Of a stretch of 32,000 bases of DNA, positions 8,549 through 27,822 are shown piece by piece. The translations under genes and the position numbers were made by a program. Source of the DNA: a virus. The notes beneath the pieces are model-generated. The model had not been told where the DNA came from and searched no databases. It saw nothing but the letters and a program-made list of their open reading frames with translations. The stretch is taken from IMG/VR virus record IMGVR_UViG_3300045988_140275, positions 1-32,000 of that record; one strand, given 5' to 3'. Position 1 is the first letter of the stretch. Each line of letters opens with the position of its first letter.

Positions 8549-8597
8549 CACTAATACCTATAGGTATTTACGCGCAAATTTAAAGGAAGGATACTGA

Positions 8598-8708
8598 ATG
8601 GAAGAACAAAAGAGAATCTCAATTGCAGAACGATTTGAAGGCTATGAAGGCGAAACACAGCAAGAAGAAATTTGGTCTGATGAAGTAGTTGGCAAAGAAG
8701 AAATATAA
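8598..8708 (+). pseudogene. C-terminal fragment of a MazE/AbrB-type antitoxin (no N-terminal swapped-hairpin domain, no toxin gene)
   Basis: The 36-aa ORF is MEEQKRISIAERFEGYEGETQQEEIWSDEVVGKEEI. Its tail resembles the ...L-x-E-L-F-x-x-Y-D-G-x-Y-x-x-E-E-I-D-W-G-x-P-V-G-K-E ending of MazE/PemI-type antitoxins. The SD AAAGGAAGG is present. Confidence 0.45.
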
Positions 8709-8730
8709 GCTAGGGAATTTACCCTAGCTT
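8707..8730. terminator. Bidirectional hairpin between convergent genes
   Basis: AAGCTAGGG (8707-8715), AATTTA loop and CCCTAGCTT (8722-8730). It lies between the 8598 ORF (+) and the Ltp gene (-). Confidence 0.6.
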
Positions 8731-8736
8731 ATTCTT

Positions 8737-9738: not shown

Positions 9739-9824
9739 TTTTTAACCCTCGTTTGTTTACGCCAAGTAAACGCTTTCCATTTTACATGTTAATCATACAA
9801 TAAATCTAACCAAAAAAGAACAAC

Positions 9825-10226
9825 CTATTTGTTGTTCTTTTCTTTTTCTCTTTTAGCTAGTTCCCTGACAACTATTGATTGCAAATAATCTGCAACTTGC
9901 TTTTTTATATCGGGTGGTGCTTCTAGGTATCCTCGAACAAGCCATTTATCTTCTGGTTTTAATCCATAATCTTCGATTAGTTGATCTATCTTTGAATCAG
10001 GTATAGAAATGAACATATCGTCTCCAATACCTTCAGTTAACCATACATAGTCAACGTTGAATTCTCGACATATAGAATTGATGGTTTGACTTGATGGGTT
10101 GGTAGTTCCTTTTTCAATGTTATTGATTGAACCTTTTGAGATACCTATTTGTTTACCAAATTTTTCCATACTCAAATTTAAATGTTTGCGTATTTTATAT
10201 ATTCTCGACCCTATATGTTCTTCCAC
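9825..10226 (-). CDS. CI-like repressor (XRE-family HTH)
   Basis: The HTH is IYKIRKHLNLSMEKFGKQIGISKGSINNIEKG. The track start (GTG 10235) lies inside the SD AAGAGGTG; the GTG at 10226 has 6-nt spacing and is preferred. It is divergent from the early operon. Confidence 0.85.
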   Translation of the reverse strand: MEEHIGSRIYKIRKHLNLSMEKFGKQIGISKGSINNIEKGTTNPSSQTINSICREFNVDYVWLTEGIGDDMFISIPDSKIDQLIEDYGLKPEDKWLVRGYLEAPPDIKKQVADYLQSIVVRELAKREKEKNNK

Positions 10227-10271
10227 GATTTTCACCTCTTAACTGCTTACACTGTGATTATACATTAAAAA

Positions 10272-11639: not shown

Positions 11640-12539
11640 ATGACTAAGGATGAGTTACAAACAAAAATTGACGGGTTTATTGAAGAAGAAACAGCGGATG
11701 AGAAAAGTAAGAATACCATTCGTAAATACAAGCATGTTGCTACTTTGTTTGTTAACTCATTGCCTGATGGTGAAATTACAAAATCCGATATAGTTGGTGT
11801 TAAAGATAAACTGCTGCATGATTATAAAATCAGTACAGTAAACAACTATATTGTGATCATTAATAAATTTATTAAATATAGCGAAATCATTGATTCAGAT
11901 GATGATTTTAATTTTCTTAAGCTAAAGAAATATTATTCAAAGAATTTATTGAAGAACGTAAGAGTCCAGAAAGATGATTCTTTGGATGATATTTTAGAAC
12001 CTAATGAATTTCAAAGGCTATTGAAAAAAGCCCGAGAAATTAATCGTATTGACTTATACGAGATCATGAAGGTGTTTGGGTATACGGGCATTCGTTTGAG
12101 TGAATTACAGTTCTTCACTGTAGAAGCAGTAACGGATGACAATGTGTATGTTATGAACAAAGGAAAAGGTAGAGGAATCATTCTACGTTCAGACTTGCGC
12201 AGAGAGCTCCTTAAATACTGCAAGGACAACAAAATTGAAGAAGGGTGTATATTTACATCTTCTGATAAGAAAAGTCCTGTAAACGCTCGTGTGTTGTCTA
12301 GAGACTTAAAGATGATTGCTGGTAAATGCAGAGGGATTAAGCTTGGTAAAGTACATCCTCACGCATTCAGACATTTGTTTGCGATTCAGTATTTGATGCA
12401 GAATGGTGAAAATGCGATTGCAGAACTAGCGGATATTCTTGGACATTCTAGTTTAGAAACTACAAGAATCTATGTTCGCACAACACGGAAAATGAAAAAG
12501 CAGAATCTTGAATCATTGAGTTATGCAAAAAGGAAGTAG
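11640..12539 (+). CDS. Second tyrosine recombinase, XerC/XerD-like
   Basis: It is 299 aa with an N-terminal SAM-like core-binding region. Motifs are GIRLSEL (Arg), HPHAFRHLFA (H-x-x-R) and LGHSSLETTRIYV (His...Tyr). It is translationally coupled (TAATATG) into the early operon. Confidence 0.9.
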   Translation: MTKDELQTKIDGFIEEETADEKSKNTIRKYKHVATLFVNSLPDGEITKSDIVGVKDKLLHDYKISTVNNYIVIINKFIKYSEIIDSDDDFNFLKLKKYYSKNLLKNVRVQKDDSLDDILEPNEFQRLLKKAREINRIDLYEIMKVFGYTGIRLSELQFFTVEAVTDDNVYVMNKGKGRGIILRSDLRRELLKYCKDNKIEEGCIFTSSDKKSPVNARVLSRDLKMIAGKCRGIKLGKVHPHAFRHLFAIQYLMQNGENAIAELADILGHSSLETTRIYVRTTRKMKKQNLESLSYAKRK

Positions 12540-16674: not shown

Positions 16675-16967
16675 AATTAATAGAATTGTTTCCATTGATT
16701 GAATGGCCTAAAGTAAACGTTTATGAAAAAAGAAAATATATGCCGTCTATATTTATCGCATCGGTTAATCCAAAAAAGAATAAAGAATGTATTTCCAACG
16801 ATTTATTAGACAGAGAAATTTATTCAATTTCAATAAGTTATAATCGTGAATTCAACATTTACGTTCGCAATAAGAAAGATGATGAAGAATTAATTAAAAA
16901 AGCTGCTTCAATTGGATTGATTGAAGATGTTAACAATGATAATTCAAATGAGGATGTAGAAGTATGA
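16671..16967 (+). CDS. Hypothetical protein
   Basis: Track ORF with 4-nt overlaps on both sides. Confidence 0.55.
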   Translation: MKLIELFPLIEWPKVNVYEKRKYMPSIFIASVNPKKNKECISNDLLDREIYSISISYNREFNIYVRNKKDDEELIKKAASIGLIEDVNNDNSNEDVEV

Positions 16968-17596
16968 CAGAAAAATTAAGACCATGTCCATTTTGTGGTG
17001 GGGAAGCAAGATTACAGTTAACAGATGATGAAGGAAATTTTAAAGATGAATCCTATTTAGAAGATCCATACAGTGGAGTTGGATATGTAATTATGCACGA
17101 TACAAATAATTCAACAAGCGATTGTCCTATTGCTACTGATTCAGATAGTTCGCAAGGCAGCTACATTTACGCATCAAAGGAAGCAGCAATAAATGCCTGG
17201 AATGGAAGAACAGATGATGATTTAACCAATTATATATCTAAAATTATGAATATCTTCTATGGATCATTCATAAATCACAATAAAGAGCTAATTCTGATTC
17301 CAAAAACAAATCTATATTTCTATTTAGGTGATGTTAATACAGTTGACGAAGTGAAGTACAAATTACTTGAATGGTGCAGCAGAAGTTGTTTTAAAGCAAT
17401 GCCATACAGATATGACAAGAAGAATAAAAAGTATCAAGATAATGTTTTAAGAAAAGTGAATGAATGTCTTGATAGGGAATTTACACGAGAACAAATGGAA
17501 TTGATTTACACAAAATTAGGAAACTGTATAAATCATGAATTGACAATGAAATTTGTTAGTAGTGGTTATGACATGAAACAGTTAGAGGAAAAATAA
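16964..17596 (+). CDS. Lar-family-like (restriction alleviation) N-terminal zinc ribbon fused to an unknown C-terminal domain
   Basis: The N-terminus LRPCPFCGGEARLQ...INAWNGR matches the Lar-type pattern (PCPFCGG...W-N-x-R). About 120 extra C-terminal residues are of unknown function. Confidence 0.5.
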   Translation: MTEKLRPCPFCGGEARLQLTDDEGNFKDESYLEDPYSGVGYVIMHDTNNSTSDCPIATDSDSSQGSYIYASKEAAINAWNGRTDDDLTNYISKIMNIFYGSFINHNKELILIPKTNLYFYLGDVNTVDEVKYKLLEWCSRSCFKAMPYRYDKKNKKYQDNVLRKVNECLDREFTREQMELIYTKLGNCINHELTMKFVSSGYDMKQLEEK

Positions 17597-18353: not shown

Positions 18354-18590
18354 ATGGTTAATATGAAGGGATATCAACCAAAAGAAATTGATAGAAGCAA
18401 AATAAAAGTGCCTGAATATTTGAAAAAAAATAAAGAGCCTGAATATGAATACAAGGTAGCGTGGGCTAATGAACGTAATAAAGCGTATATCGAATATTTA
18501 TTGAATAATGGATGGAGCATTTTTAATGTACAAATTCCTTTGATTTATTTTAGAAAGGAAAAAAAGGATGTTAAAGAAATACAGGATTAA
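18354..18590 (+). CDS. Hypothetical protein
   Basis: Track ORF with the SD GGAGAAAG upstream. Confidence 0.5.
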   Translation: MVNMKGYQPKEIDRSKIKVPEYLKKNKEPEYEYKVAWANERNKAYIEYLLNNGWSIFNVQIPLIYFRKEKKDVKEIQD

Positions 18591-18714
18591 GTATATCAAA
18601 GACAATAATATTTGTGTGATGGAAGTTATGGAGGAATCAAAAAGCATGGCAATGTATAAGTTCTATATGAAATTTCCATCATGCAGCATTGAGGAAATTG
18701 AAGAAATAGCATAG
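18568..18714 (+). CDS. Possible 48-aa ORF
   Basis: The sequence is MLKKYRIKYIKDNNICVMEVMEESKSMAMYKFYMKFPSCSIEEIEEIA. It fills the 18591-18722 gap, overlaps the previous gene by 23 nt and has only a weak SD. Confidence 0.3.
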   Translation: MLKKYRIKYIKDNNICVMEVMEESKSMAMYKFYMKFPSCSIEEIEEIA

Positions 18715-18722
18715 GAGAGAAG

Positions 18723-19190
18723 ATGAGTAAAACGGATTATGAAGAATATGTAGATGTTCAGGTGGATACATTAATTAAAAAACTTGAAATGTTCAAGATC
18801 TATGAAAGAAAGTTTAAATCGTTGGATGGAATCTTAAAGGATTTGGAGGTTCGCAAAAAAGAATTTTCAGATCCAAAGTCACCATCATTTGAACAAAGAC
18901 TAGATTCAAAGAAAAACAAGGACATTACAAATGATGTTCTTGTAAAGTTTATTTCAAAAGAAAAAACACTTGAAGATGATAAGAATCTAATCTTCGGAAA
19001 GATGAGAGAAATTGAAACAATTATTGACCTTATTCCGGATGATGATATTCGTTTATATATGAAACGTCATTATATCAACGGAGAGTCATTTGAGAAGCTT
19101 TCAGGAGAAAAGTTCTGTAGCAGAATGAAAATGTATTACGCAATGAAAAAAGAGCTTAAAAAGCTCGTTATAGGGGATTTAAGTAAATAA
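18723..19190 (+). CDS. Putative late-gene transcriptional activator (sigma region-4-like, ArpU/RinA-type position)
   Basis: The C-terminal LIPDDDIRLYMKRHYINGESFEKLSGEKFCSRMKMYYAMKKELKKL resembles a region-4 HTH. It sits at the end of the early/middle region, as in many Firmicutes siphoviruses. Confidence 0.5.
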   Translation: MSKTDYEEYVDVQVDTLIKKLEMFKIYERKFKSLDGILKDLEVRKKEFSDPKSPSFEQRLDSKKNKDITNDVLVKFISKEKTLEDDKNLIFGKMREIETIIDLIPDDDIRLYMKRHYINGESFEKLSGEKFCSRMKMYYAMKKELKKLVIGDLSK

Positions 19191-19203
19191 GAGAGGACGA
19201 ACA

Positions 19204-19473
19204 ATGCAGAAAGTAATCAGATCATATATTTTTGATGGGAAAAGTTTTGAAGAATTGCAAAAAGCGTTAGATGAAGGCTATGTTGTTGTTATGGCAAATA
19301 AGGTTGGAAAATGTGATGATGCTATTGAATACATTCTTGAAAATAAAGACAAAGAAATCTCGATTGATACTATTGTTAAAGGATTAAGAGTGTATGCAAC
19401 AACAAAAACGGATTTGTTTAAGGCAGGAGTTTTACAAGCGGCAAAGTTGATTGAAACAGGTGAAGTAAGATGA
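19204..19473 (+). CDS. Hypothetical protein
   Basis: Track ORF with the SD GAGAGGA upstream. Confidence 0.5.
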   Translation: MQKVIRSYIFDGKSFEELQKALDEGYVVVMANKVGKCDDAIEYILENKDKEISIDTIVKGLRVYATTKTDLFKAGVLQAAKLIETGEVR

Positions 19474-19540
19474 GATTAATTGCATAAATACGTGGTTGAA
19501 AAATTCATAAAGTTTTTATTTTAGAAAAGTGTTACAAAGT

Positions 19541-19560
19541 AGCCTATTTACTAGGCTTTT
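19541..19560 (+). terminator. Weak hairpin terminator
   Basis: AGCCTA (19541-19546) / TAGGCT (19552-19557), followed by TTT. Confidence 0.35.
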
Positions 19561-19619
19561 AAAAGGTTTGTGGTTAGTCTGATAATATATAGTTATCGGA
19601 CATAGAAAAGAGGAATGAA

Positions 19620-19895
19620 ATGAATAAAATATACAAATTATTAATGGTTGGAATGATTGGCATTTCCTTGTTTGGATGTGCTTCTATGGATCGTTTTGGC
19701 ACTGATGTTAAGTCAGATTTGAATGGCGGATTGAATAGAATAATTAATGTGTATACAGCAGATGGAAAAATTATAGCAAGCTATGAAGGTAGAATTGATA
19801 TTGAAATAAATGATGGTGGATATGTAAAATTTGATTATGATGGAAAAAGATATGTTTATTATAATTGTTTTGTAGAAACGATTGCAGATAAATAG
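19620..19895 (+). CDS. Small lipoprotein
   Basis: It has a signal peptide with the lipobox LFGC (MNKIYKLLMVGMIGISLFGCAS). It is preceded by a hairpin and the imperfect inverted repeat GTCTGATAA/TTATCGGAC (19577-19601). Confidence 0.75.
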   Translation: MNKIYKLLMVGMIGISLFGCASMDRFGTDVKSDLNGGLNRIINVYTADGKIIASYEGRIDIEINDGGYVKFDYDGKRYVYYNCFVETIADK

Positions 19896-20478: not shown

Positions 20479-20645
20479 TGACTATGGAGGTTATTTTCCG
20501 CCTTCTGATGGTATTTCTTTCTTGACTGTGCCTTTAGTTCTAGATTGAACACCATCATTACTTTTTTCATTTTCTGTCATTTTGTTATCATCCACGATAA
20601 TTATACAGAAATAAGTTTATTAGAAAAGTTTAAGGAGTAAAGAAA

Positions 20646-20999
20646 ATGAAATGTAAATTACCAAAGTTTTTAACAGAAAAACATATAAATATAGGTGATG
20701 AACTTAATAAGTTTTTTATGATCAATAATACACAAAGTTTATTTGTACAATACAAAAATCATGTTGTATGTGTTTATATGGCAGATGAAAAGTTTATTAG
20801 GTGTAATTATGATAAGAATGGTATACTCGTTATTAAGCATTATATTTGTGAACCGCAATTCAAAAGTTTATATAGAAAGTTTTTAGATAATGAAATTGAT
20901 TGCTTAAACTATGAAGACGTAATGAATGGCTGCAATAAGTTTTATCTAAATTCAGATGAAGAATATACAAAGTTTTTAAGAGCGTTGCTTGATATGTAG
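20646..20999 (+). CDS. Hypothetical protein, paralogue 1
   Basis: Track ORF with the SD AAGGAG. LFVQYKNHVVCVY...QFKSLYRKFLDNEIDC aligns with VFVRYDNVQISVV...KFSRLLEKFFDGSILC of the next ORF. Confidence 0.6.
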   Translation: MKCKLPKFLTEKHINIGDELNKFFMINNTQSLFVQYKNHVVCVYMADEKFIRCNYDKNGILVIKHYICEPQFKSLYRKFLDNEIDCLNYEDVMNGCNKFYLNSDEEYTKFLRALLDM

Positions 21000-21020
21000 A
21001 AAGTTTTTAGGAGTGATGAA

Positions 21021-21305
21021 ATGGACGAAAATAAGTTTTCTTATAAAGAAGTTTTTGTGAGATATGATAATGTACAAATTAGTGTTGTTTGTTCTAAAAT
21101 GGTTGAAAAAGTTTTTGAATATAATGCACATGATGATGAAGATGTGTCTGTGAACTATGTTTATTATGTTAAGAAAGAAAAGTTTTCTCGGTTGTTGGAA
21201 AAGTTTTTTGATGGTTCGATTCTATGCAAGCATGAAAAAGGATCTCAAAAGTTTTTTCCAACGTCTCAAGTACAATTAGAAAAAAGTTTTTCTAATCCTG
21301 GATAA
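21021..21305 (+). CDS. Hypothetical protein, paralogue 2
   Basis: Track ORF with the SD AGGAGTG. It is similar to the 20646 ORF, including the upstream TAGAAAGTTT..AGGAGT context. Confidence 0.6.
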   Translation: MDENKFSYKEVFVRYDNVQISVVCSKMVEKVFEYNAHDDEDVSVNYVYYVKKEKFSRLLEKFFDGSILCKHEKGSQKFFPTSQVQLEKSFSNPG

Positions 21306-21346
21306 ATAAGTTTTTCAAAAGAAAGTTTTTCGGATATAATGAATAC

Positions 21347-21907
21347 ATGAATGATTATATAAGTTTTCTATGCACATTATTAAATATAAAGATTCCAAAA
21401 GTTTTCTTTAAAGCAAATGATAAGGTTTATGATCTTAAACATAAACCAGTCAATAAAGAACTTTTTCAAGTAAAAGATACAAGCATATGCACATCATATC
21501 CAAAAGAGAATGTAATTTGTGTAAACCTGAATACATCCATAATAGATACTAGTGTAGTTTATATATATCTTGCGCATGAAATAAGGCATTTATATCAATA
21601 TTCATGTGTATATAATAAGAATCAAAAAGTATTTTCTATGGATGAGAGAAGTGTATCTATATGGAAAAAGGAACTTGAAAGTTATAAGGATTCAAGCAGC
21701 AAACACTATGAGAATCAGGAAATAGAAAAAGATGCAAACTTGTTTGCAAACTTTATAGCTATAGTGATATTTAAAAGAGTTTTGGATATAAAAGAAATTG
21801 ACAAAAAAGAATATGAGTTTAAAACAAAACTTTTTATGAACTTTTTCGCATCGAATCCGGTTAAAAAGCAGCTGATCCAGAAGCAAATCAAAAAAATGAA
21901 AGTATAA
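21347..21907 (+). CDS. Putative HExxH zinc metallopeptidase (ImmA/IrrE-like motif)
   Basis: VVYIYLAHEIRHLYQY contains HExxH in a hydrophobic helix context. There is no obvious SD. The family assignment is tentative. Confidence 0.45.
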   Translation: MNDYISFLCTLLNIKIPKVFFKANDKVYDLKHKPVNKELFQVKDTSICTSYPKENVICVNLNTSIIDTSVVYIYLAHEIRHLYQYSCVYNKNQKVFSMDERSVSIWKKELESYKDSSSKHYENQEIEKDANLFANFIAIVIFKRVLDIKEIDKKEYEFKTKLFMNFFASNPVKKQLIQKQIKKMKV

Positions 21908-21934
21908 AAAAAGGACTTTTTTACAAGTCCTTTT
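21906..21934. terminator. Bidirectional terminator between convergent blocks
   Basis: AAGGACTT (21911-21918) / AAGTCCTT (21925-21932), flanked by an upstream A-run and a downstream T-run. Confidence 0.75.
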
Positions 21935-22235
21935 CAATTTGTTCGAGTTCTCTTTTTGCATGGTTGAAGCGCTTTTTTTCACGTTTGCTTTTTTCTTTTT
22001 GATCCCATTTTTCTAAATGGATTTTTGCATATCTAAAAAGCCTAACATATAGATAATTTTTTGTGTAAGAATCAAAATTATAAATAGATCCATTCATAAA
22101 ATGCAAATCAACATACTTTGCATATTTTCCAATTGCAATATAACTGATATATCCATTACTAAATAAACCAGGTTCACGGCTCATATATTGCAATAAATTA
22201 CATAAATTTTTTATATCGTTAACAGTTTTCTTCAT
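21921..22235 (-). CDS. Hypothetical protein (last gene of the ArdA operon)
   Basis: Track ORF with the SD AGGAGGTAAGGAAA upstream on the minus strand. Confidence 0.55.
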   Translation of the reverse strand: MKKTVNDIKNLCNLLQYMSREPGLFSNGYISYIAIGKYAKYVDLHFMNGSIYNFDSYTKNYLYVRLFRYAKIHLEKWDQKEKSKREKKRFNHAKRELEQIEKDL

Positions 22236-22247
22236 TTTCCTTACCTC

Positions 22248-22826
22248 CTAAAATGGGAATTCAAAATCATCAATCATATTATTGATATTTTTTTGTTGTG
22301 CTGCTTTCTTCTTTTTTGGTGCAGCTTTTTCAATGCACATTTTTTCTATTTTACCATCACAATATATATAAGTATCCTGAAGCTTGTTTCTATTAAATAC
22401 GTCAATAGTTTTTGAAGTAGTGTTATAAGTTGCTAGCAAGCTTTTTGAGCCTGGTTTACAGATCTTAAAAAGATCCTTATTTAATATATCTATATAGCAT
22501 TTGTAAATTTTGAAGAAATAACAGATATCTTTTATTTCTTGAATATCTGGTGTATATAACTCTTTCTTTGCTTCAGTATTGAAAAACAATTGAATATCAT
22601 AATTGAAAAGCTTGTCAAGATCATGCGCTACAAACAACCTCAAGTCATTTGTTTGAGCAGCTGCATACATGCATTTATTATGATCGAACTTAAAACCATG
22701 ATTTTTTAAAATCTTTTCAGTTGAAACGCTTGGAGTTCCTAACGCTTCAACATAAATGTGCGGTTGTTTTCTTTCGTTTGTAACATAATAATTGAAATGA
22801 GTTCGTTCACGCTTCCACATTGTCAT
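22248..22826 (-). CDS. Hypothetical protein with an SSB-C-terminal-tip-like tail
   Basis: Track ORF. It ends ...KAAPKKKKAAQQKNINNMIDDFEFPF, a basic/Q-rich linker followed by an acidic-hydrophobic ...DD-F-E-F-P-F tip like the SSB D-D-D-[IL]-P-F tail. The N-terminal domain is not OB-fold-like by eye. Confidence 0.55.
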   Translation of the reverse strand: MTMWKRERTHFNYYVTNERKQPHIYVEALGTPSVSTEKILKNHGFKFDHNKCMYAAAQTNDLRLFVAHDLDKLFNYDIQLFFNTEAKKELYTPDIQEIKDICYFFKIYKCYIDILNKDLFKICKPGSKSLLATYNTTSKTIDVFNRNKLQDTYIYCDGKIEKMCIEKAAPKKKKAAQQKNINNMIDDFEFPF

Positions 22827-23052
22827 TTTTAAGCCCTCCTAAAATATCCAAAATACATAAAGTATTTACAAGTTGCCAAAGTTCACGCGGTTTGAGCATC
22901 CAAGCCACAACGTCAAGCCCATAATATAAGTTATATGAACCGTTTAAATGTTTAGTTATTGTGTAAGGTTTGCAGCTAGATCCATTTAGTTGATCCAACT
23001 TTTTTTCTACAAATTCAATATATTCTTTATTATTCATTTTTAAAACCTCCAT
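22807..23052 (-). CDS. Hypothetical protein
   Basis: Track ORF that overlaps its neighbours within the minus-strand operon. Confidence 0.5.
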   Translation of the reverse strand: MEVLKMNNKEYIEFVEKKLDQLNGSSCKPYTITKHLNGSYNLYYGLDVVAWMLKPRELWQLVNTLCILDILGGLKNDNVEA

Positions 23053-23312
23053 TCATTATCTTCAAAAATCTTTATAACAAGTGTATAAAGCTCATTGCTT
23101 ACATGTTTAGAATCGCTTAATAGTTGATCATAATAAATATTTTTTACTTTTTCACTATCAATATAAGCAAGATCATAAATGAATGATTCTATATGATCCA
23201 CTAAACATTCATATAAAAAGTCATACACGACAAAATCACCAGAAATAAGATCATTCATATATGATCTTATTCTTACATATTTATGCAATAATTTAATTTC
23301 TAAAAGTTCCAT
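23040..23312 (-). CDS. Hypothetical protein
   Basis: Track ORF with the SD GGAGGTTAAACA-ATG. Confidence 0.55.
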   Translation of the reverse strand: MELLEIKLLHKYVRIRSYMNDLISGDFVVYDFLYECLVDHIESFIYDLAYIDSEKVKNIYYDQLLSDSKHVSNELYTLVIKIFEDNEWRF

Positions 23313-23329
23313 TGTTTAACCTCCTGCAA

Positions 23330-23479
23330 TTAATAAATAAATGGGAGTATGATATTTAAAAGGCCCAATATTATACCCATGATCAATGTAGATGTGCACG
23401 CTGCTAAATATAATTTTAAAAATGCAAGTATGAGCACCTTGAAGGCGCTCATATTGTCAAGTTTTTTACGTGTTAGCAT
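23330..23479 (-). CDS. 49-aa membrane peptide
   Basis: The sequence is MLTRKKLDNMSAFKVLILAFLKLYLAACTSTLIMGIILGLLNIILPFIY. Its ATG overlaps the ArdA stop (ATGCTAA). It fills the gap and is below the track cutoff. Confidence 0.5.
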   Translation of the reverse strand: MLTRKKLDNMSAFKVLILAFLKLYLAACTSTLIMGIILGLLNIILPFIY

Positions 23480-23973
23480 GTGTAAATAACTCCGTTCGAA
23501 GTTTCACAATATCCATCATAGCCAAGATCACGCGCGAACGCTTTATAATCAAAATATCTTTGCGCAATTTCTGGGAGTTTATAACATTCTTCTACAATTT
23601 CATAAGCCACATCTTCCAACGTCATACCTTCGTAAAAAGTATAGTTTTCACTTTCTAAATATCTTAATGCATCCGTATAGCTGCATACTTCCATTAATGC
23701 AGTGAATTCACTTTCATTGTCTTCTAATGCTTCAGCCACTTCATTAATATCGTCAATGTTTGGATATTCACCAAATGCATCATACATATCAAACAATGAA
23801 CAATCATAATCAGTGATAAACCACTCTTCATACATTGTGTTTTCTTTCACTCCAATGCTTTCAAGTTCGCTTGTAAAATCATCCTCATCGATAGGGAAAT
23901 CAATCCATTTACCAACTAAACAACCCTCATTGTATTTACCTAAATTTGTAATATAAGCTTTCATTTCACACAT
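23473..23973 (-). CDS. ardA: Antirestriction protein ArdA
   Basis: MKAYITNLGKYNEGCLVGKWIDFPIDEDDF...YFDYKAFARDLGYDGYCETSNGVIY closely parallels Tn916 Orf18-type ArdA (YIANLGKYNEGELVG.W..FPID ... YIDYQAYGRDL). It is strongly acidic. The SD AAGGAGG is present. Confidence 0.9.
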   Translation of the reverse strand: MCEMKAYITNLGKYNEGCLVGKWIDFPIDEDDFTSELESIGVKENTMYEEWFITDYDCSLFDMYDAFGEYPNIDDINEVAEALEDNESEFTALMEVCSYTDALRYLESENYTFYEGMTLEDVAYEIVEECYKLPEIAQRYFDYKAFARDLGYDGYCETSNGVIYTC

Positions 23974-24076
23974 AATCTTTAACCTCCTTACTTTTCAATC
24001 ATTTTTTTTAAAAGATATGCATTGAATGCTAACGATAGTAATAACGCTATTTTTAGTAGTTCCATATTTTAAAACG

Positions 24077-24214
24077 TGGTATAATATAAGTACCTAAGTG
24101 ACTAAAATAAGTCACTTAGATATTTAGCAAGAAGCTTGAGGGCTTCACCAATTAAGAGCGTGTATATAATTTCGAACGTTTTGGATAGGTACGAAATCAT
24201 GCGCTCTTTTTTTT
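24077..24214 (+). ncRNA. Candidate antisense RNA opposite the 24102..24269 ORF
   Basis: A plus-strand extended -10 TGGTATAAT lies at 24077-24085. A plus-strand hairpin AAGAGCG (24154-24160) / CGCTCTT (24202-24208) is followed by six T (24209-14). There is no good -35, and the terminator loop is long. Confidence 0.3.
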
Positions 24215-24269
24215 CGCGCTTTTTTCTATCGCGACGTTTCATTGGTTTGCTACGTTTATACTTTGCCAC
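24102..24269 (-). CDS. Possible 55-aa protein: highly basic N-terminus plus amphipathic/hydrophobic C-terminus
   Basis: The GTG start has a strong SD (AAGGAGGTG, 5-nt spacer). The sequence is VAKYKRSKPMKRRDRKKREKKERMISYLSKTFEIIYTLLIGEALKLLAKYLSDLF. It is the first ORF after the 24341-24313 promoter. It is not in the track because of the GTG start. Confidence 0.45.
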   Translation of the reverse strand: MAKYKRSKPMKRRDRKKREKKERMISYLSKTFEIIYTLLIGEALKLLAKYLSDLF

Positions 24270-24312
24270 GTTTGCACCTCCTTTCGTGTGGCTTGTCTCT
24301 TAAGACGTTTAC

Positions 24313-24341
24313 ATAATAAAACGAACGTTTTACACTGTCAA
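24313..24341 (-). promoter_or_regulatory. Consensus promoter of the ArdA operon
   Basis: The minus strand reads TTGACA (24341-24336), 17 nt, TATTAT (24318-24313). The spacer contains CGAACGTTTT (24322-24331), which recurs at 24173-24182. Confidence 0.7.
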
Positions 24342-24425
24342 GTAAAAAATAAAATAAATGTTTGATTATTGAAAAATAATGTTTGATATTATAAAATAAA
24401 TATAGGACGGGAGGCATGCAGTTAT

Positions 24426-24632
24426 ATGAAAGAAAATCAAATTATAGCCGCGCTTGCTTATGCTCATAAAAGCCAGCAAGATATCGCGGATGCGTTTGGA
24501 TGCACCAAGCAAAATGTTAGCACTAGAATCAAACGCGAAAAATTCACAGATGAAGAACTTGAAAAAATGGCGCAAGCGATAGGCGCAAAATACAAATGCT
24601 ATTTTGAATTTGAAGACGGCACTAAAATATAA
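24426..24632 (+). CDS. Small HTH DNA-binding protein divergent from the ArdA operon
   Basis: KSQQDIADAFGCTKQNVSTRIKREKF is a helix-turn-helix. The SD is GGGAGG. A strong terminator follows. Confidence 0.65.
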   Translation: MKENQIIAALAYAHKSQQDIADAFGCTKQNVSTRIKREKFTDEELEKMAQAIGAKYKCYFEFEDGTKI

Positions 24633-24647
24633 AACCGTCTTTTTTTA
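24614..24647 (+). terminator. Rho-independent terminator
   Basis: AGACGG (24614-24619) / CCGTCT (24635-24640) plus TTTTTT. Confidence 0.75.
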
Positions 24648-24775
24648 TGCTCATTTTTTCAAAAAGCTTTTTGTTTTGCAAAGGTGCTTGCAAGTGCCTA
24701 TTTAAAAGGCTTTTCATTGTGTTTGCGTTTGGTCTTATAACATATAGTTAACAGACTAGTAATATATACATGTGT

Positions 24776-24799
24776 GGACGGGTTGACCGTCCTTTTTTT
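24776..24799 (+). terminator. Strong orphan rho-independent terminator (no ORF upstream)
   Basis: GGACGG (24776-24781), GTTGA loop and CCGTCC (24787-24792), followed by seven T. Confidence 0.75.
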
Positions 24800-24899
24800 G
24801 GTGGGGTTTGCTTCAGCTCCAGGAAGACAAGTGACACGCTTAAACATATGGAACGGGTGCGCATGATTCAATGTATTGGAGTGATGCAAGACTTATTGC

Positions 24900-25220
24900 A
24901 TATATAAGAACGTGCGTGCGTGTTCTATTAATGTAGTCGTGGCTATGTTATGAAACAACGCTTTCAACAATGCATGTTGAAAGATGTTTCAACACAATAA
25001 TAAATATATGAATGTCATATGATTGAAGCCGTGAGCGGTGCGATGTGGTGGTAGCTGCATGATTCAAATTTTGAACCCTGAAAGCGCCCTGGCATGGATC
25101 AGATCAGCATAGACCGCCCCTATATTTCAAAAAGTTTTTTGCGCTTTGGGGAACGGCGTGGGGAGTTAAAAAAAACCGGGTCATGAGTGCATGAGAGGGG
25201 GTAAAATCTGAATTTCTTCA
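24900..25220. other. Putative cos/packaging-recognition region
   Basis: This is non-coding and locally GC-richer DNA immediately upstream of HNH-TerS-TerL. It contains hairpins AGAAC..GTTCT (24906-24925) and CTTTCAAC..GTTGAAAG (24961-24983), TTTCAAC repeats and G/C blocks (GACCGCCCC, GGGGAACGGCGTGGGGAG). The exact cos ends cannot be determined from sequence. Confidence 0.4.
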
Positions 25221-25256
25221 TTTTGTACAGTGTACAAAGAAAAACCGTGATATTCT
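25220..25256 (+). promoter_or_regulatory. Palindrome-containing late promoter-like element (prophage B copy)
   Basis: ATTTTGTACAGTGTACAAA (25220-25238), 12 nt, then TATTCT (25251-25256). The 19-mer and spacing are the same as at 3699-3735. Confidence 0.5.
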
Positions 25257-25336
25257 GTAGTCGTGAAGATTGGAAAACATCTTCTAGAACAAACAAGGTA
25301 GTTCTTGGATTGTTTCATTATTTCGTGCCCGTTGAA

Positions 25337-25366
25337 AAAGACCTGTGGAAACATGGGTCTTTTTCA
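25337..25366 (+). terminator. Hairpin plus T-run in the leader between the late promoter-like element and the HNH gene
   Basis: AAAGACC (25337-25343) / GGTCTTT (25356-25362), followed by TTC. Confidence 0.45.
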
Positions 25367-25448
25367 TATCACTGCATTCAAAGTGTTTACTGTTTAGATT
25401 TCCGTCCTTTCCTTTAAATCTGTTAACTAAAACTTTGAATGTAGCGAT

Positions 25449-25835
25449 ATGAAAAAATATTATGGTTCAGAAGCAACAAAAACAGGTGCTAGAAATTATG
25501 CTAGAAAATTTTACTCAAGCAAGGCTTGGGAAAAGAAAAGCAAAGCGTATAGAAAGGCACATCCACTTTGTGAAAGATGTTTGAAAAAAGGTATCTATAC
25601 CAGGTCGACTTGCGTGCACCACAAAGTGCACATTGACCAGGACAACTATAGAGATGTACACATTCTATTTGGCGATTCTAATTTGGAAGCGTTGTGTGAC
25701 TTATGTCATGCAGAAGAACATTCCAAACGTAAACCATCTTTTGAATTTGATGAAAACGGAATGCTTATAGGATGTGGAAGGGAGGATGATGAATGCAAAA
25801 AGGAGCATGGAAAAAAAGAATCAATTCACAACTAG
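25449..25835 (+). CDS. Terminase-associated HNH endonuclease
   Basis: CERCLKKG...CVHHKVHI...NLEALCDLCHAEEH is an HNH core. It lies directly upstream of TerS/TerL, as in HK97-like cos phages. Confidence 0.85.
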   Translation: MKKYYGSEATKTGARNYARKFYSSKAWEKKSKAYRKAHPLCERCLKKGIYTRSTCVHHKVHIDQDNYRDVHILFGDSNLEALCDLCHAEEHSKRKPSFEFDENGMLIGCGREDDECKKEHGKKESIHN

Positions 25836-26167
25836 AGAATTTAGGCACATTTTCTCCTGAATATTCGGTTGCGGTTGATTCACTTGCAGATGCCTTGGCC
25901 CAATACGATTCGACAATGAAGCAATGGAGAGATTCAAGTAAAGCAAATGGCTACAAATCACTACAGATGGTTGTTGAATATACGAACAAGGGCGGTGCAA
26001 CGAATTTATCGCGCTCGCCATACTACATTATTACCGTTCAATTACGTGATCAAATCATGAAATACTGCAAAGAACTTGGCTTGTCACCTACTTCACTATC
26101 AAAGACAACAGAAGTATCCGGAAAAAAAGGTGATGAATTGGATGAGTTCATGAGCAGATTTAAATGA
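25793..26167 (+). CDS. terS: Terminase small subunit (P27-family-like)
   Basis: The SD GGGAGG lies 7 nt upstream. Its size, position and the pattern SPEYSVAVDSLA...YYIITVQLRDQIMKYCKELGLSP fit the family. Confidence 0.7.
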   Translation: MQKGAWKKRINSQLENLGTFSPEYSVAVDSLADALAQYDSTMKQWRDSSKANGYKSLQMVVEYTNKGGATNLSRSPYYIITVQLRDQIMKYCKELGLSPTSLSKTTEVSGKKGDELDEFMSRFK

Positions 26168-27822
26168 AATATTTAGACATTTATAAAGAACGTATTATAT
26201 CGGGTGAAGATGTAGTCGGTAAGTGGATAAAGCTTAATCTTCAATATGTTGAAAGAGGTTTAGCAAATGGAGATTTCTTCTATGATGAGAAAAAAGCAGA
26301 AATGCATATAGCGTTTATTGAAACGTTTTGTCATCACGTAGAAGGAAAAACAACAAAAGTAAAGCTTGAGCCTTGGCAAAAATATTATATTGCGTGCATA
26401 TTCGGACTTGTTGATAAGAATGGAAAAAGGCAGTTTCGTGAAATACCTACGGTCATGGGCCGAAAACAAGGAAAATCATTTCTATGTGCAGGTATTGAAC
26501 TTGATGTTGGATTTACATCGGATGAAGCAGGTATGCAGATATACAATATAGCGCCAAAGTTAAAACAAGCGCAGATCATTTACAATGTTCTGTATCAAAT
26601 GATGGAACACTCTAAAGCGTTGAGTCAAAGAGTGAAAAAACGTAGAACAGATATCTACATGAAACAGAACAACTGTAGATGGGAGCCAATTGCCTTTGCA
26701 TCTAAAAAATCAGACGGATTTAACCCATATTTGACAATCTTTGATGAGTTTGCAGCCTGGGAAGGGGAAGCGGGTATGAAAATGTACAACGTTATGTTGT
26801 CGGCAGGTGGTGCAAGACCTGATCCACTTTATATTCCTGTAAGTACCGCAAACTATATTGATGAAGGATTATATGATGAATTATTTGTTCGTGGAACATC
26901 TGTTTTACTTGGTACGTCTGATGAAAAACAAATGTTGCCTTTCTTTTATATGATTGATGATATTCAAAAATGGGATGATCCTATTGAATTAAGAAAAGCA
27001 ATGCCAAACCTTGGAATATCGGTTTCTTATGAATATTTGCAGAATGAAATTTTAAAAGCACATAGCTCACCTACATATAAGGCGGAGTTCATAACAAAGT
27101 ATGCGAATATCAAACAGAATTCAACGGAAGCGTTATTTAGTGCAGAAGATATTAACAAAGTTAAAGGTGAAGAACTTAGATTTGAAGATTTTGCACATAC
27201 ATATGCAGTTGGTGGAATTGACTTGTCACAAACAACCGATTTAACAGCCGCATCTGTAGTTATACGAATTCAAGAACAGGACTACATATTTACTCATTTT
27301 TGGCTTCCAACATTAAAAATCAAGGAGCTAGAAGAAAGAGACAAAATACCATATACAAGATTTATTCAATTGGGATATTTAAGTCCAAGTGGGGAAAATT
27401 TTGTACGGTATGAAGATGTTACGGAATGGTTTGAAATGCTACGTAAGAAATACAAGATTTATTGCGTGGTCGTTGGATATGACCGTTATTCGGCTCAGTA
27501 TCTTGTGGACGATATGAAGAAATACGGATACAAGATGGATGATGTTATTCAGGGTACTAACCTTACACCAGTTATTAATGAATTTACGGGATATGTAAGA
27601 GATGGATTTGTTCATACAGGAACAAACGGACTTTTACAAGCACATATGTCTAGTGTTGCATTAAAGAAAGTTGCAGAAGACAATCGTGTTCGCATGATTA
27701 AAACTGATCCAAGAAAACATATTGATGGGTATGCATCTGTTATTGATGCATATACAGTAAGACAAAAATGGTGGGATACATTCAAGTACCGCCTTGAAAA
27801 CAAGAAAAGGAAGGTGAATTAG
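26164..27822 (+). CDS. terL: Terminase large subunit
   Basis: It is 552 aa with Walker-A-like MGRKQGKS and Walker-B-like LTIFDEFAAW, plus a C-terminal nuclease region. The ATGA overlaps TerS. Confidence 0.9.
   Translation: MKYLDIYKERIISGEDVVGKWIKLNLQYVERGLANGDFFYDEKKAEMHIAFIETFCHHVEGKTTKVKLEPWQKYYIACIFGLVDKNGKRQFREIPTVMGRKQGKSFLCAGIELDVGFTSDEAGMQIYNIAPKLKQAQIIYNVLYQMMEHSKALSQRVKKRRTDIYMKQNNCRWEPIAFASKKSDGFNPYLTIFDEFAAWEGEAGMKMYNVMLSAGGARPDPLYIPVSTANYIDEGLYDELFVRGTSVLLGTSDEKQMLPFFYMIDDIQKWDDPIELRKAMPNLGISVSYEYLQNEILKAHSSPTYKAEFITKYANIKQNSTEALFSAEDINKVKGEELRFEDFAHTYAVGGIDLSQTTDLTAASVVIRIQEQDYIFTHFWLPTLKIKELEERDKIPYTRFIQLGYLSPSGENFVRYEDVTEWFEMLRKKYKIYCVVVGYDRYSAQYLVDDMKKYGYKMDDVIQGTNLTPVINEFTGYVRDGFVHTGTNGLLQAHMSSVALKKVAEDNRVRMIKTDPRKHIDGYASVIDAYTVRQKWWDTFKYRLENKKRKVN

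Follow-up and report, generated by a model that had tools for sequence, protein, structure and literature searches.

A probable anti-restriction-led, self-repressed accessory operon next to the cos site of a temperate siphovirus

What does a minus-strand operon that encodes ArdA among otherwise unfamiliar small proteins contribute to a phage, and does its place beside the packaging genes matter for this contribution? We addressed this question in positions 1 to 32,000 of the IMG/VR virus record IMGVR_UViG_3300045988_140275; this whole 32,000-nucleotide stretch, referred to as the window, is from a temperate, gut-associated, HK97-like cos siphovirus of human-associated Firmicutes. The operon is conserved in more than 50 related phage contigs, and the same operon is found at the same place in 22 ArdA-anchored and 56 o192-anchored contigs. 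On balance, we favor the idea that it is an accessory operon of a temperate cos siphovirus that is anti-restriction-led, self-repressed, and located next to cos. As such, it is a familiar kind of phage counter-defense locus, in which most genes besides ArdA belong to no known family. The operon and its regulatory region comprise the following features:

24426 to 24632, plus strand: gene for HTH68, a divergent 68-aa helix-turn-helix (HTH) protein (weak HTH matches)
24369 to 24397, plus strand: HTH68 promoter, TTGAAA-17-TAAAAT (promoter-like site in the scan)
24357 to 24387, plus strand: two direct repeats of AATGTTTGAT, 21 bp apart, flanking the −35 box of the HTH68 promoter (repeat count)
24313 to 24341, minus strand: operon promoter, sigma-70/SigA-type, TTGACA-17-TATTAT (11/12 match)
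24308 to 24341, unstranded: imperfect dyad centered on the promoter spacer, core AAAACG-TT-CGTTTT (inverted repeat I3)
24295 to 24306, minus strand: conserved 5'-UTR element GTCTTAAGAGAC, a small stem-loop at the transcript start (sequence reading)
24102 to 24269, minus strand: o55, 55 aa, GTG start (ORF reading)
24091 to 24122, minus strand: 13-bp hairpin over the o55 stop codon with a weak U-tract (terminator-like match)
23988 to 24065, minus strand: o25, hydrophobic 25-aa ORF, MELLKIALLLSLAFNAYLLKKMIEK (sequence reading)
23473 to 23973, minus strand: ArdA, DNA-mimic inhibitor of type I restriction-modification (R-M) enzymes (Pfam, PHROGs, PDB)
23429 to 23453, minus strand: conserved RNA hairpin within the 5' part of o49 (terminator-like match)
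23330 to 23479, minus strand: o49, 49-aa membrane peptide (GRAVY 1.34)
23040 to 23312, minus strand: o90, acidic 90-aa protein (pI 4.6)
22807 to 23037, minus strand: o81, likelier 76 aa, conserved core gene (second ATG)
22248 to 22826, minus strand: o192, conserved core gene (family and structure prediction)
21921 to 22235, minus strand: o104, last gene, variable slot (cluster and structure prediction)
21908 to 21935, both strands: bidirectional intrinsic terminator, common to the operon and the convergent gene at 21347-21907 (scan of both strands)

The genes are read from the minus strand in the order o55, o25, ArdA, o49, o90, o81 (76 aa), o192, and o104, and the ORFs are tightly spaced, being RBS-linked or overlapping. 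Because pN/pS across relatives is 0.16-0.45 for all ORFs tested (o25 was not among these), the tested ORFs behave as real genes under purifying selection. The first-pass annotation had listed all of these ORFs except o25, which it overlooked, and had given o81 81 aa; GGAGG lies 8 nt upstream of the second ATG of o81 and gene callers on related contigs give 76 aa, and we prefer this start to the longer one. The promoter that it had proposed at 24341-24313 was confirmed as the best match within 20500-26500 (11/12, near-consensus). This match alone is little proof because shuffled sequences yield more promoter-like sites than the scanned region (30 versus 24); the promoter reading is supported because the −35 box TTGACA is retained in 22/22 related loci, in which the spacer and −10 box vary with the type of regulator. 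The bidirectional terminator, previously placed at 21906-21934, was recovered on both strands at 21908-21935 (folding energy −13.9 kcal/mol, z = −4.0).

Within the close lineage, TerL is 98-100% identical (18 ArdA-anchored loci including TerL), and the cassette proteins are 55-95% identical. The membrane peptide, o81, and o192 are kept almost everywhere in relatives; in more distant cos-core phages, the same operon, likewise directed inward, combines an o192 homologue with either ArdA or the acidic 156-aa protein. The cassette of one of the related loci (L130) carries an inserted IS1595-type transposase.

The identity of ArdA, as originally claimed, is borne out by its extreme acidity and by Pfam and PDB matches that span the full length. 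The protein matches PF07275 with E = 3.8e-35 and 122 bits (cut-off 27) over model positions 1-154 of 155, phrog_2059 ("anti-restriction protein") with 3.6e-30, and the solved structure of the Tn916 Orf18 ArdA (2W82) over its full length with E = 4e-19, and has a pI of 4.1 and a net charge of −31.5. In relatives, the ArdA position is hypervariable; where ArdA is missing, it is filled by one of a set of at least five proteins that are unrelated and in many cases very acidic. In the cases examined, these alternative occupants always precede the same hairpin and membrane peptide, and a homologous o49 peptide follows whichever gene fills the slot. Because the o49 ATG overlaps the ArdA stop codon (ATGCTAA), we suggest that translation of o49 is coupled to that of ArdA. 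The pN/pS of o49 is 0.41. The hairpin in o49 has a folding energy of −17.2 kcal/mol (z = −5.2). Of 20 sequence variants, nearly all retain its stem, ATGAGC[G/A]C...GTGCTCAT, with a single mismatch in L017, whereas the peptide diverges outside this stretch; the U-tract is not always retained. Possibly, this hairpin is a partial terminator or processing signal downstream of the variable slot.

Preceding ArdA, o55 (pI 10.3, net charge +10.5, pN/pS 0.45) combines a Lys/Arg-rich N-terminal segment with an amphipathic or hydrophobic C-terminal helix; some relatives have different o55 sequences of the same architecture, and one locus (L006) is without o55. The hairpin over its stop codon (−17.2 kcal/mol, z = −5.5) has equivalents in four other variants (z = −5 to −9), which differ in sequence, with compensatory changes or an inverted loop, and is a candidate attenuator or RNA-stability element. 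o25 is kept in a divergent locus (L015) with conservative changes (MDLIKLVLFLSIALNAYLLKKIINK), and c43-type loci have a 27-aa analogue; because o25 has no obvious Shine-Dalgarno sequence, we regard it only as probably coding. o90 is optional, being present in 29 of 49 relatives, and is also found in two phages that are more distant (L130 and L143).

The HTH gene at 24426-24632 had been proposed as the regulator of the operon, and both the gene and this role found support. The Pfam HTH matches of HTH68 fall below the cut-offs (Phage_CI_repr, 2.3e-4), and its match to phrog_38278 is at 5e-9. In relatives, HTH68 is replaced by unrelated small HTH proteins and the promoter spacer changes along with them. 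Because regulator gene and spacer are swapped jointly, as a block of which at least five versions exist, all joined at the 5'-UTR element, we suggest that HTH68 probably represses the operon in an Aca-like role; alternatively, the co-variation of regulator and operator could merely reflect physical linkage in a swapped block of <150 bp. The 5'-UTR element is present as GTCTTAAGAGAC in most promoter variants and in a slightly changed form, GTCTTAAGTGAC, in others, and from its sequence appears to be the fixed junction where differing promoter/regulator modules join.

The dyad in the promoter spacer (16-nt arms, 75% complementarity, 2-nt gap), the sequence of which is specific to loci with an HTH68-type regulator, is a candidate operator for HTH68. 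AATGTTTGAT occurs four times in the window versus 0.44 expected, with two of the four copies at the HTH68 promoter; these repeats are candidate autoregulatory operators and are related to the AAAC[A/G]TT core of the operon promoter. The first-pass annotation had pointed to other repeats, and its counts hold, i.e., CGAACGTTTT is present in exactly two copies in the window (0.03 expected) and ACGTTT six times within 24176-24330, while a reading of them as operators is weakened. Two of the ACGTTT copies are Lys-Arg codons of o55, one lies in Lys-Thr-Phe codons, one overlaps the start codon, and the copy near the transcription start is absent from most relatives; the second CGAACGTTTT copy sits within o55 and is retained whatever the regulator. 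We therefore consider the ACGTTT cluster mostly a coding coincidence.

Based on these observations, we suggest a model in which the host RNA polymerase would fire the operon promoter on infection with no phage factor needed, and we infer that this timing is early. ArdA, the first large product, would act as a dimeric DNA mimic that fills the DNA-binding groove of type I R-M enzymes, and the unmodified genome would thereby be protected. HTH68 would accumulate, bind the promoter-spacer dyad and the AATGTTTGAT repeats, and shut the operon down, and would probably also keep it low in the lysogen, following the same logic as Aca at anti-CRISPR loci. The slot after the promoter would be exchanged by recombination, and the occupants of the ArdA slot would presumably be matched to differing host defenses. 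All functions beyond that of ArdA remain putative in this model.

Are the unfamiliar ORFs good candidates for new anti-defense proteins, as the first reading had it? In the searches, none of o55, o49, o90, o81, o192, and o104 reached a curated Pfam cut-off (sub-threshold matches at E = 0.08-0.09 were obtained only for o90 and o192) or had a PHROGs or PADLOC match, and no second known anti-defense gene was found in the cassette above threshold in PADLOC, Pfam, or PHROGs. Nothing ties these ORFs to plasmid leading regions because, save for a 29%-identical o192 relative, we found no homologues outside the cos-core phage group; this relative heads an operon converging on an ArpU/dUTPase module. 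Moreover, o81 (pN/pS 0.20), which is present in 54 of 56 o192-bearing contigs with the two exceptions cut by contig ends, and o192 form a core that is conserved in nearly all relatives and not variable; conservation rather than variability is unusual for counter-defense genes. The better anti-defense candidates are the alternative ArdA-slot occupants of relatives, so that the original suggestion shifts from the unknown ORFs of the window to these proteins. Other anti-restriction-type genes lie far from the genome end, namely, a Lar-like gene at 16964-17596 of the window, and methylase and Sequestin genes in the relative L187.

o192 has a basic, beta-rich body (~residues 1-165), a disordered Lys-rich linker, and a C-terminal tip, ...DDFEFPF. 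Its family has no annotation and is small, with 22 representatives in a search of 1.84 billion proteins and with 129 and 138 clusters in two other searches. Every relative ends in an acidic SSB-like ...[L/M/F]-P-F tail, in which Pro-Phe-COOH is invariant down to 21% identity, and among the 120 window ORFs of ≥50 aa, only o192 ends in PF. The AF2 model (mean pLDDT 73.7; tail <50) gave no PDB fold match. We suggest that o192 is most likely a nucleic-acid-binding protein with an SSB-like tail that may dock onto host SSB-partner proteins; it resembles a protein that binds DNA or SSB partners more than it does a classical small inhibitor. Along these lines, it is conceivable, albeit doubtful, that o81, o192, and perhaps o90 are phage DNA-handling functions co-transcribed with a variable anti-restriction gene, with o192 as a non-canonical single-strand-binding or recombination accessory protein. 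The near-ubiquity of o81 and o192, the persistence of o192 homologues in distant phages, and the o192 architecture speak for this idea, as does the fact that no canonical SSB was recognized in the window in a partial check. However, Pfam gave neither an OB-fold nor an SSB match for o192, its fold matches to PC4-type ssDNA binders are insignificant (E about 1, probability 0.13-0.16), and it lies outside the replication module on the opposite strand; also, a related phage (L155) encodes a canonical-looking SSB in addition to an o192 homologue.

The last slot is variable. In relatives, the place of o104 is either empty or taken by c22, a protein of 185-191 aa, which may be accompanied by the 156-aa protein c41; at some loci, c22 and o104 have their last residues (QIEKDL) in common. 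o104 has only 14 clusters, all within the lineage, and is predicted to have an alpha-beta3-alpha-alpha fold (AF2 pLDDT 92, pTM 0.83) with no PDB match (best E = 0.57).

For the position of the operon, two further features are relevant:

25148 to 25165, plus strand: cos core GGGGAACGGCGTGGGGAG (contig ends)
25449 to 27822, plus strand: genes for HNH endonuclease, TerS (Terminase_4), and TerL, which form an HK97-like module for cos packaging at the left virion end (Pfam and PHROGs)

The proposal that cos lies in the non-coding stretch before HNH-TerS-TerL, with the operon opposite the terminase end and reading inward, is supported by contig starts and adapters, and the three packaging genes were verified by Pfam and PHROGs; a portal gene follows TerL, as do genes for an S78 protease and an HK97-type capsid in relatives. 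The final G of the cos core is the very first nucleotide of the contigs behind L064 and L094, and those behind L074 and L082 have an Illumina adapter fused to the same G, i.e., four independent contigs start at one nucleotide. At its other end, the 44.7-kb L082 contig runs up to ...GGGGAA and then into adapter, which leaves an 11-nt gap between both ends; the right-end position comes from this single contig, and adapter remnants are also found at evident assembly-break contig ends bordering variable regions (L010, L012). The cos 18-mer is unique in the window and recurs beside HNH-TerS-TerL of other phages with otherwise different flanks. The cos overhang is likely 11 nt, 3', CGGCGTGGGGA, at 25154-25164, which would place the right virion end at 25164, the start of the left end at 25165, and the operon promoter ~823 bp from the right end. 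Because cos lies ~285 bp upstream of HNH, HNH is at the left end with the terminase genes. By analogy to lambda and SPP1, the right end would enter first; because a siphovirus ejects its whole genome quickly, the benefit of end proximity is uncertain.

The layout itself is recurrent because, among 40 deposited phage genomes sampled evenly, 36 have an inward-reading ArdA ≤6.5 kb from one end of the record; in this sample, the independent lineages are few and not all record ends are physical ends; Mycobacterium phage Dublin, with a linear record, is one checked example. We nevertheless weighed the tentative alternative that the end position is a by-product, i.e., that the junction between the late regulator (ArpU-like) and cos is a permissive recombination hotspot with no entry-order advantage. 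The highly variable content of both slots, the transposase within the L130 cassette, and the mid-genome location of other anti-restriction-type genes fit this alternative; so does Butyrivibrio phage Arawn, the closest annotated TerL relative, which has no such cassette and runs from a sigma/ArpU-like gene straight to HNH. Also, siphovirus ejection takes seconds to minutes and is followed by circularization. By contrast, the 36 of 40 records come from phages of several unrelated host groups, which is hard to explain by one hotspot, and the strong host-type promoter is nearest the end, an arrangement also seen in T7 and in the mycobacteriophage L5 right arm. Finally, it is improbable that the operon is a lysogenic-conversion moron that is expressed from the prophage to serve the host (superinfection exclusion, membrane functions) with ArdA as a passenger: its orientation against the flanking lytic genes, with a promoter and a terminator to itself, its three small hydrophobic or amphipathic peptides (o55, o25, o49), and its site between the regulatory and packaging modules, which is common for morons, would suit this, but ArdA serves incoming unmodified DNA and, if constitutive, would disarm the type I R-M system of the lysogen, the dedicated divergent repressor and candidate promoter operators argue for expression in a pulse, no protein matches a PADLOC defense model above noise, and a typical exclusion gene is already present next to cI in the prophage (Ltp lipoprotein, 8737-9738).

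The anti-restriction-led operon that we favor shares features with several known systems. ArdA resembles Tn916 Orf18 (2W82) in full-length homology, size (166 versus 165 aa), and extreme negative charge, and ArdA of Mycobacterium phage Dublin is likewise found among small unknown ORFs and read inward from the right genome end; we take the actinobacteriophage proteins annotated as "ArdA-like antirestriction proteins" to be known relatives (PF07275). ArdA of the window is only 30-40% identical to any deposited phage ArdA and, unlike known ArdA, is one among several alleles that replace one another at a defined slot and, judging from the overlap, translationally coupled to a membrane peptide. The packaging module resembles those of the HK97/phi12/phiSLT type, in which cos packaging is reportedly HNH-dependent (Kala et al. 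2014; Quiles-Puchalt et al. 2014), in its HNH, P27-family TerS, TerL, and HK97-type portal, protease, and capsid genes, and in a G+C-rich cos with a probable 3' overhang; it differs in that HNH overlaps TerS and that cos is upstream of HNH rather than between HNH and TerS. As in T7-like phages with ocr and the leftward early right arm of L5, a host-recognized promoter lies near the genome end, and as in T7, the product is an anti-type-I-restriction DNA mimic, here ArdA instead of Ocr. T7 entry is slow and driven by transcription, making position decisive; we know of no such entry for HK97-like siphoviruses. Further differences are that the phage described here is temperate and that its cassette reads against all neighboring genes. 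Early-entering anti-restriction genes near genome ends have also been considered elsewhere (PMC12455610). The leading regions of conjugative plasmids carry ardA, ssb, and psiB (Samuel et al. 2024, PMC11541004). The operon is similar in that ArdA is near the end expected to enter first and has a neighbor with an SSB-type C-terminal tip; it differs in that the genome is double-stranded phage DNA and not transferred single-stranded DNA, and Pfam revealed no ssb or psiB homologues in the cassette, i.e., only one recognized anti-defense gene. Anti-CRISPR and anti-defense loci under Aca-type HTH repressors are described in PMC13551039. We obtained no match to a known Acr or Aca family; the HTH gene is transcribed away from the operon instead of being part of it further downstream, and repression here is what we infer. 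Similar to Aca-controlled loci, the operon has a strong promoter, an adjacent small HTH gene, an inverted repeat in the promoter, and variable small downstream genes.

The locus is a genuine, conserved and probably self-repressed ArdA operon that adjoins the right cos end in the genome of a temperate phage with cos packaging. The window (~31% G+C) covers most of a temperate siphovirus genome, with the following features:

4076-5152, lysin amidase
5355-5509, tRNA-Asp and tRNA-Gly
5638-6735, integrase
next after the integrase, minus strand, Ltp-type lipoprotein and cI-type repressor
after the cI region, replication module (Phg_2220_C, DnaC-like), HNH, dUTPase and Lar-like protein
18723-19190, DUF1492/ArpU-type late regulator, with several unknown genes after it
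24341 down to 21921, minus strand, the ArdA cassette, then a divergent HTH gene and ~800 bp of non-coding DNA
after the ~800-bp non-coding stretch, HNH, TerS (Terminase_4), TerL and portal

Because the lysin, tRNA and integrase genes are contiguous (4076-6735), the contig is a circular permutation and not an integrated prophage with host flanks. The two tRNAs, which were the only Rfam matches, occupy the expected attP position. The region between the integrase and the cI-type repressor (6757-10235) encodes DUF6978, a DUF1828/DUF1829 protein and the Ltp-type surface lipoprotein (minus strand, Pfam 2e-27), and has the look of an exclusion or defence region of the kind typically expressed in lysogeny. 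Within the early region, a second tyrosine recombinase is encoded at 11640-12539 (plus strand; Phage_integrase, 2.5e-18), apart from the 5638-6735 integrase. Neither the cassette nor the cos-terminase region has a nucleotide match among 50,697 deposited phages in near or distant search mode; the best TerL identity among deposited phages is 48%, and there is no close cultured relative. The single hint to the host is one metagenome-assembled-genome contig labelled 'uncultured Solobacterium sp.'.

The first-pass annotation had described a minus-strand operon in which ArdA is accompanied by small ORFs without recognisable family, and this description holds. The best promoter match of the region is TTGACA-17-TATTAT at 24341-24313, all of the listed ORFs are present, and the bidirectional terminator was confirmed at 21908-21935. 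Two details of the ORF set changed: the 81-aa ORF (o81) more likely has 76 aa, and a conserved hydrophobic 25-aa ORF (o25; 23988-24065) between o55 and ArdA had been overlooked, giving the order o55, o25, ArdA, o49, o90, o81, o192 and o104 (numbers are aa as first listed). The ORFs are mostly preceded by a GGAGG-type ribosome-binding site or an overlapping stop/start. Across relatives, pN/pS is 0.16-0.45 for each ORF tested, arguing that these are genuine genes. Two RNA hairpins are conserved, of which one spans the o55 stop and shows compensatory changes between variants, while the other lies within the 5' part of o49 and retains the stem in almost every one of 20 variants. In one related locus (L013), the o55-terminal hairpin (at the counterpart of window 24091-24122) has an unchanged stem but a 6-nt loop that reads as the reverse complement of the one usually present; this shortens o55 by two residues and suggests a hairpin-mediated inversion. 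The convergent neighbour of the operon (21347-21907, plus strand) encodes a protein of 186 aa that contains an HExxH motif and weakly matches DUF6782, a family of putative metallopeptidases, and it is kept at the same position in the more distant phage L155.

The identity of ArdA is unambiguous. The protein matches PF07275 with 122.2 bits (cut-off 27; E = 3.8e-35) over model positions 1-154 of 155, phrog_2059 with E = 3.6e-30, and the solved Tn916 Orf18 ArdA (2W82 / 7BTO) with E = 4e-19, residues 2-162 aligning to 2-160 across all three domains. It is strongly acidic, as for a DNA-mimic surface (pI 4.1; net charge -31.5 at pH 7). The other six ORFs of the original list fall below the curated Pfam cut-offs and have no PHROGs or PADLOC match. 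No informative family emerged from Pfam, PHROGs and PADLOC searches with all window cassette ORFs other than ArdA and with 20 alternative proteins of related cassettes; the sole matches are to two PHROGs of unknown function, for the acidic 156-aa and the 144-aa occupants of the ArdA slot in relatives. PADLOC returned zero matches for eight window proteins and for c22, an alternative protein in the o104 slot of relatives, and only a noise-level PglX match (E = 0.006) for c41 from the same slot; a match to a known defence-system protein, as looked for in a prophage-encoded defence system or moron, was thus not seen for these proteins. The o104 model is confident (AF2 pLDDT 92), with an alpha-beta3-alpha-alpha fold that has no PDB match, and its family is restricted to this phage lineage.

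The proposal that the operon lies at the virion end opposite the terminase genes and reads inward fits the cos site that we mapped from contig ends. A search of IMG/VR with the HNH protein gave 63 loci of the same lineage. Based on assembled contigs and not on read pile-ups, four independent contigs start at one identical nucleotide, the G of GTT[C/T]AAAAAAAC, and in two of the four an Illumina adapter is joined directly to this G. The G corresponds to window position 25165, the last base of the 18-mer GGGGAACGGCGTGGGGAG (25148-25165), which occurs once in the window. One adapter-bearing contig of 44,713 bp ends at its other side in ...CGGGGAA followed by adapter, such that, in this one right-end example, the 11 bases CGGCGTGGGGA (25154-25164) are absent between the adapter-fused right and left ends. 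Because end repair removes 3' overhangs, this 11-nt gap fits a 3' overhang. The 18-mer also lies upstream of HNH-TerS-TerL in other phages, with otherwise different flanks. Because of the contig starts, the adapter-fused ends, the missing 11 bases and the shared 18-mer, we place cos at 25154-25164, with the right end taken from one contig and with adapter remnants occurring also at ordinary assembly breaks (L010, L012). The shared contig starts and the conserved motif thus define unique, sequence-specified termini, as in cos packaging, and GGGGAACGGCGTGGGGAG looks like the cos cleavage core common to a wider HNH-cos phage group. Exact copies lie a short way upstream of HNH-TerS-TerL in the otherwise dissimilar L130, L131, L132, L135, L143, L145 and L155, with a C-run upstream and GGGGGTA downstream. 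The adapter remnants CTCTTCCGATCT / AGATCGGAAGAGC were seen at the ends of the IMG/VR contigs L010, L012, L074, L082 and L325; those at cos are true DNA ends, and those of L010 and L012 are assembly breaks bordering the variable regulator module. A scan with the 14-mer GGATCAGATCAGCA for further right-end contigs was too unspecific and was discarded.

With cos at 25154-25164, the operon promoter lies ~823 bp inside the right virion end and points inward, the divergent HTH gene is directed outward, and the left end opens with the HNH and terminase genes. The HNH protein (Pfam 3.6e-5; phrog_144 1.1e-17) adjoins Terminase_4, the TerL ATPase and nuclease domains and Phage_portal; an HNH gene beside TerS/TerL and an HK97-type portal is the arrangement of HK97-like, HNH-assisted cos packaging. 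By analogy with lambda and SPP1, the models for which end is ejected first, the right end would be the first to leave the virion.

The cassette is found at the same place in 22 ArdA-anchored and 56 o192-anchored related contigs, and it is absent from Butyrivibrio phage Arawn, which has the closest annotated terminase. Within the close lineage, TerL is 98-100% identical, whereas the cassette proteins are 55-95% identical. Faster protein evolution does not explain this difference: synonymous divergence is also raised in the cassette (e.g., pS 0.50 for o192 versus 0.25 for TerL) and pN/pS is below 0.5 throughout, arguing for recombination of older alleles and not for positive selection. Among the 49 contigs with enough upstream sequence, the ArdA slot holds ArdA in 17, an unrelated, very acidic 156-aa protein in 11, and another occupant in 21. 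Among these other occupants are single proteins of 160 aa (acidic coiled coil in the centre) and 144 aa, one of 130 aa that comes with a partner, and pairs of 75+234 aa and 219+210 aa; the family searches were uninformative for all alternatives to ArdA. Whatever the occupant, a membrane peptide like o49, with the conserved hairpin, follows it in all cases examined. The terminal slot holds o104, or a 185-191-aa protein with or without a 156-aa protein, or nothing, and in some loci the alternative ends in QIEKDL like o104, upstream of the shared terminator. By comparison, o81 and o192 are in nearly every contig. The L130 cassette is interrupted, ~1.8-2.8 kb left of the cos motif, by a gene for a transposase-like protein with an IS1595-type zinc ribbon, which separates the membrane peptide from the o90 homologue.

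The divergent gene (24426-24632, plus strand) encodes the 68-aa helix-turn-helix protein HTH68 and sits 85 bp from the -35 box of the operon promoter. HTH68 has several matches to generic HTH families only, all below the Pfam cut-offs (best 2.3e-4), and matches phrog_38278 at 5e-9. A small HTH gene beside an anti-defence promoter is the layout of Aca loci, and a dyad at 24308-24341 overlaps the operon promoter. Among 22 loci, the spacer sequence varies with the type of regulator, and among relatives the divergent HTH gene, the promoter spacer and the -10 are exchanged together in at least five versions:

HTH68-type module, spacer AAAACGTT[C/T]GTTTT, with two AATGTTTGAT repeats over the promoter of HTH68 itself
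c32-type module (c32, an alternative regulator in relatives), TTGTAAAT repeats
third module type, palindrome TTATAACTCTAGGGTTATAA
remaining module types, two more versions

TTGACA is kept in all types, and all join at the conserved 5'-UTR element GTCTTAAG[A/T]GAC. Such exchange is consistent with cognate pairing of repressor and operator, as seen at Aca-controlled loci; however, regulator and spacer are physically linked, and because of this linkage their covariation would be expected even without an interaction. The ACGTTT cluster, which had been considered as an operator array, was set aside since most copies are accounted for by coding sequence. Downstream, the HTH68 gene has a short GACGG/CCGTC hairpin and T-run of its own after the stop (read by eye), and ~140 nt past the stop, after an ORF-free stretch, lies a strong terminator-like hairpin, GGACGGGTTGACCGTCC followed by T7 (24776-24792, plus strand). 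The hairpin region at 24640-24800 has no Rfam match; it might specify a small RNA or act as a second barrier shielding cos.

An exhaustive phmmer search among 1.84 billion proteins gave 22 representatives of the o192 family, which is tiny and unannotated; neither phmmer nor two word-seeded searches, one with a profile, identified an annotated or distant family, and the o192 profile had no relevant match to PDB sequences. The AF2 model has moderate confidence (mean pLDDT 73.7), with a beta-rich body and a disordered tail below 50. Foldseek detected no significant PDB fold match, and the model matches uncharacterised viral proteins only over domain-sized stretches, one of them labelled DUF3560. 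Structure matches to PC4-like ssDNA binders do not rise above noise and were not counted as evidence. That o192 is itself an SSB (PF00436) finds no Pfam, PDB-profile or Foldseek support for an OB-fold. Its C terminus resembles an SSB tail, with a disordered linker, an acidic tip and a terminal hydrophobic-Pro-Phe (DDD[I/L]PF). All members, down to 21-29% identity, end in acidic residues and [L/M/F]-Pro-Phe (IDDFEFPF in the window; LLEEMPF, FESIELPF, DYSCLPF and CLDLLPF in others), while the linker ranges from 0 to ~30 aa. P191 and F192 are invariant in nine members down to 21% identity and are two of only nine invariant columns in the alignment. Among the 120 window ORFs of at least 50 aa, o192 alone ends in PF, and a partial check recognised no canonical SSB in the window. 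In bacterial SSB, the C-terminal tip DDDIPF (SSB-Ct) docks onto many DNA-repair and replication proteins (PMC5872125). The o192 tail copies this tip and, by inference from sequence, may dock in a similar way. Its homologues are in the cos-proximal inward operon of the more distant phages L130, L155 and L135, and a 29%-identical homologue is the first gene of another inward operon, convergent with an ArpU/dUTPase module.

From contig ends alone, these data map a sequence-defined cos site and the virion ends in a phage lineage that is abundant, human-associated and uncultured. They also define a hypervariable slot bracketed by the conserved 5'-UTR and the conserved hairpin plus membrane peptide, as well as a small conserved family with an SSB-like tip in the same operon as ArdA. 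The slot alleles, ArdA plus five or more uncharacterised and often strongly acidic proteins, form a compact set of candidates to test as inhibitors of restriction or of other defences. A counter-defence role is less likely for o81 and o192, which are conserved, than for the exchangeable alleles that relatives carry in the slot. We regard as improbable a broader reading for HNH-cos siphoviruses with the GGGGAACGGCGTGGGGAG core, in which the last 3-4 kb before the right end would be the functional counterpart of a plasmid leading region, immediately transcribed and self-limiting, and would combine an exchangeable DNA-mimic slot (ArdA or new acidic inhibitors) with the o192 family, whose SSB-type tip would recruit or block host SSB-partner enzymes on the first-entering end. 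If true, the slot alleles and o192 would represent new classes of counter-defence or hijacking proteins. Elsewhere in the window, the early/replication region encodes a 210-aa protein (16964-17596, plus strand) whose N-terminal domain is of the Lar 'restriction alleviation' type (Pfam 1.6e-7); its gene is a second anti-restriction candidate and lies well away from the genome end. In the close relative L187, a Sequestin-domain protein (PF21825) lies beside a DNA cytosine methylase in the early region (18355-19803); thus, the other genes of counter-defence type in this phage group lie away from the cos end.

Anti-restriction by ArdA-type proteins and anti-defence loci under repressor control are both already established, and in this respect the core of our finding is not new. 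In plasmids, the leading region (ardA, ssb, psiB) is a multi-gene cluster, whereas in the cassette only ArdA is recognised, with no SSB, PsiB or other anti-defence match above curated cut-offs; the cassette therefore differs from a plasmid-type leading region with several recognised anti-defence or SOS genes. Using tblastn with this ArdA, 143 deposited phage records were matched; in an evenly spread sample of 40, which covers few independent lineages and in which record ends are not always physical ends, ArdA lies at most 6.5 kb from a record end in 37 and reads inward in 36. The sample includes phages of Mycobacterium, Rhodococcus, Gordonia, Clostridioides, Paenibacillus, Desulfovibrio and Bacillus; the Mycobacterium and Rhodococcus records of SEA-PHAGES type presumably begin at physical ends. 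In the linear record of Mycobacterium phage Dublin, the only one checked in this respect, ArdA comes eighth in a series of small uncharacterised genes that starts at the right end and is read inward. Based on this sample and Dublin, an end-proximal, inward-reading ArdA is a recurrent and already visible phage layout that is not particular to the window, which makes it directly testable whether entry order matters for siphoviruses.
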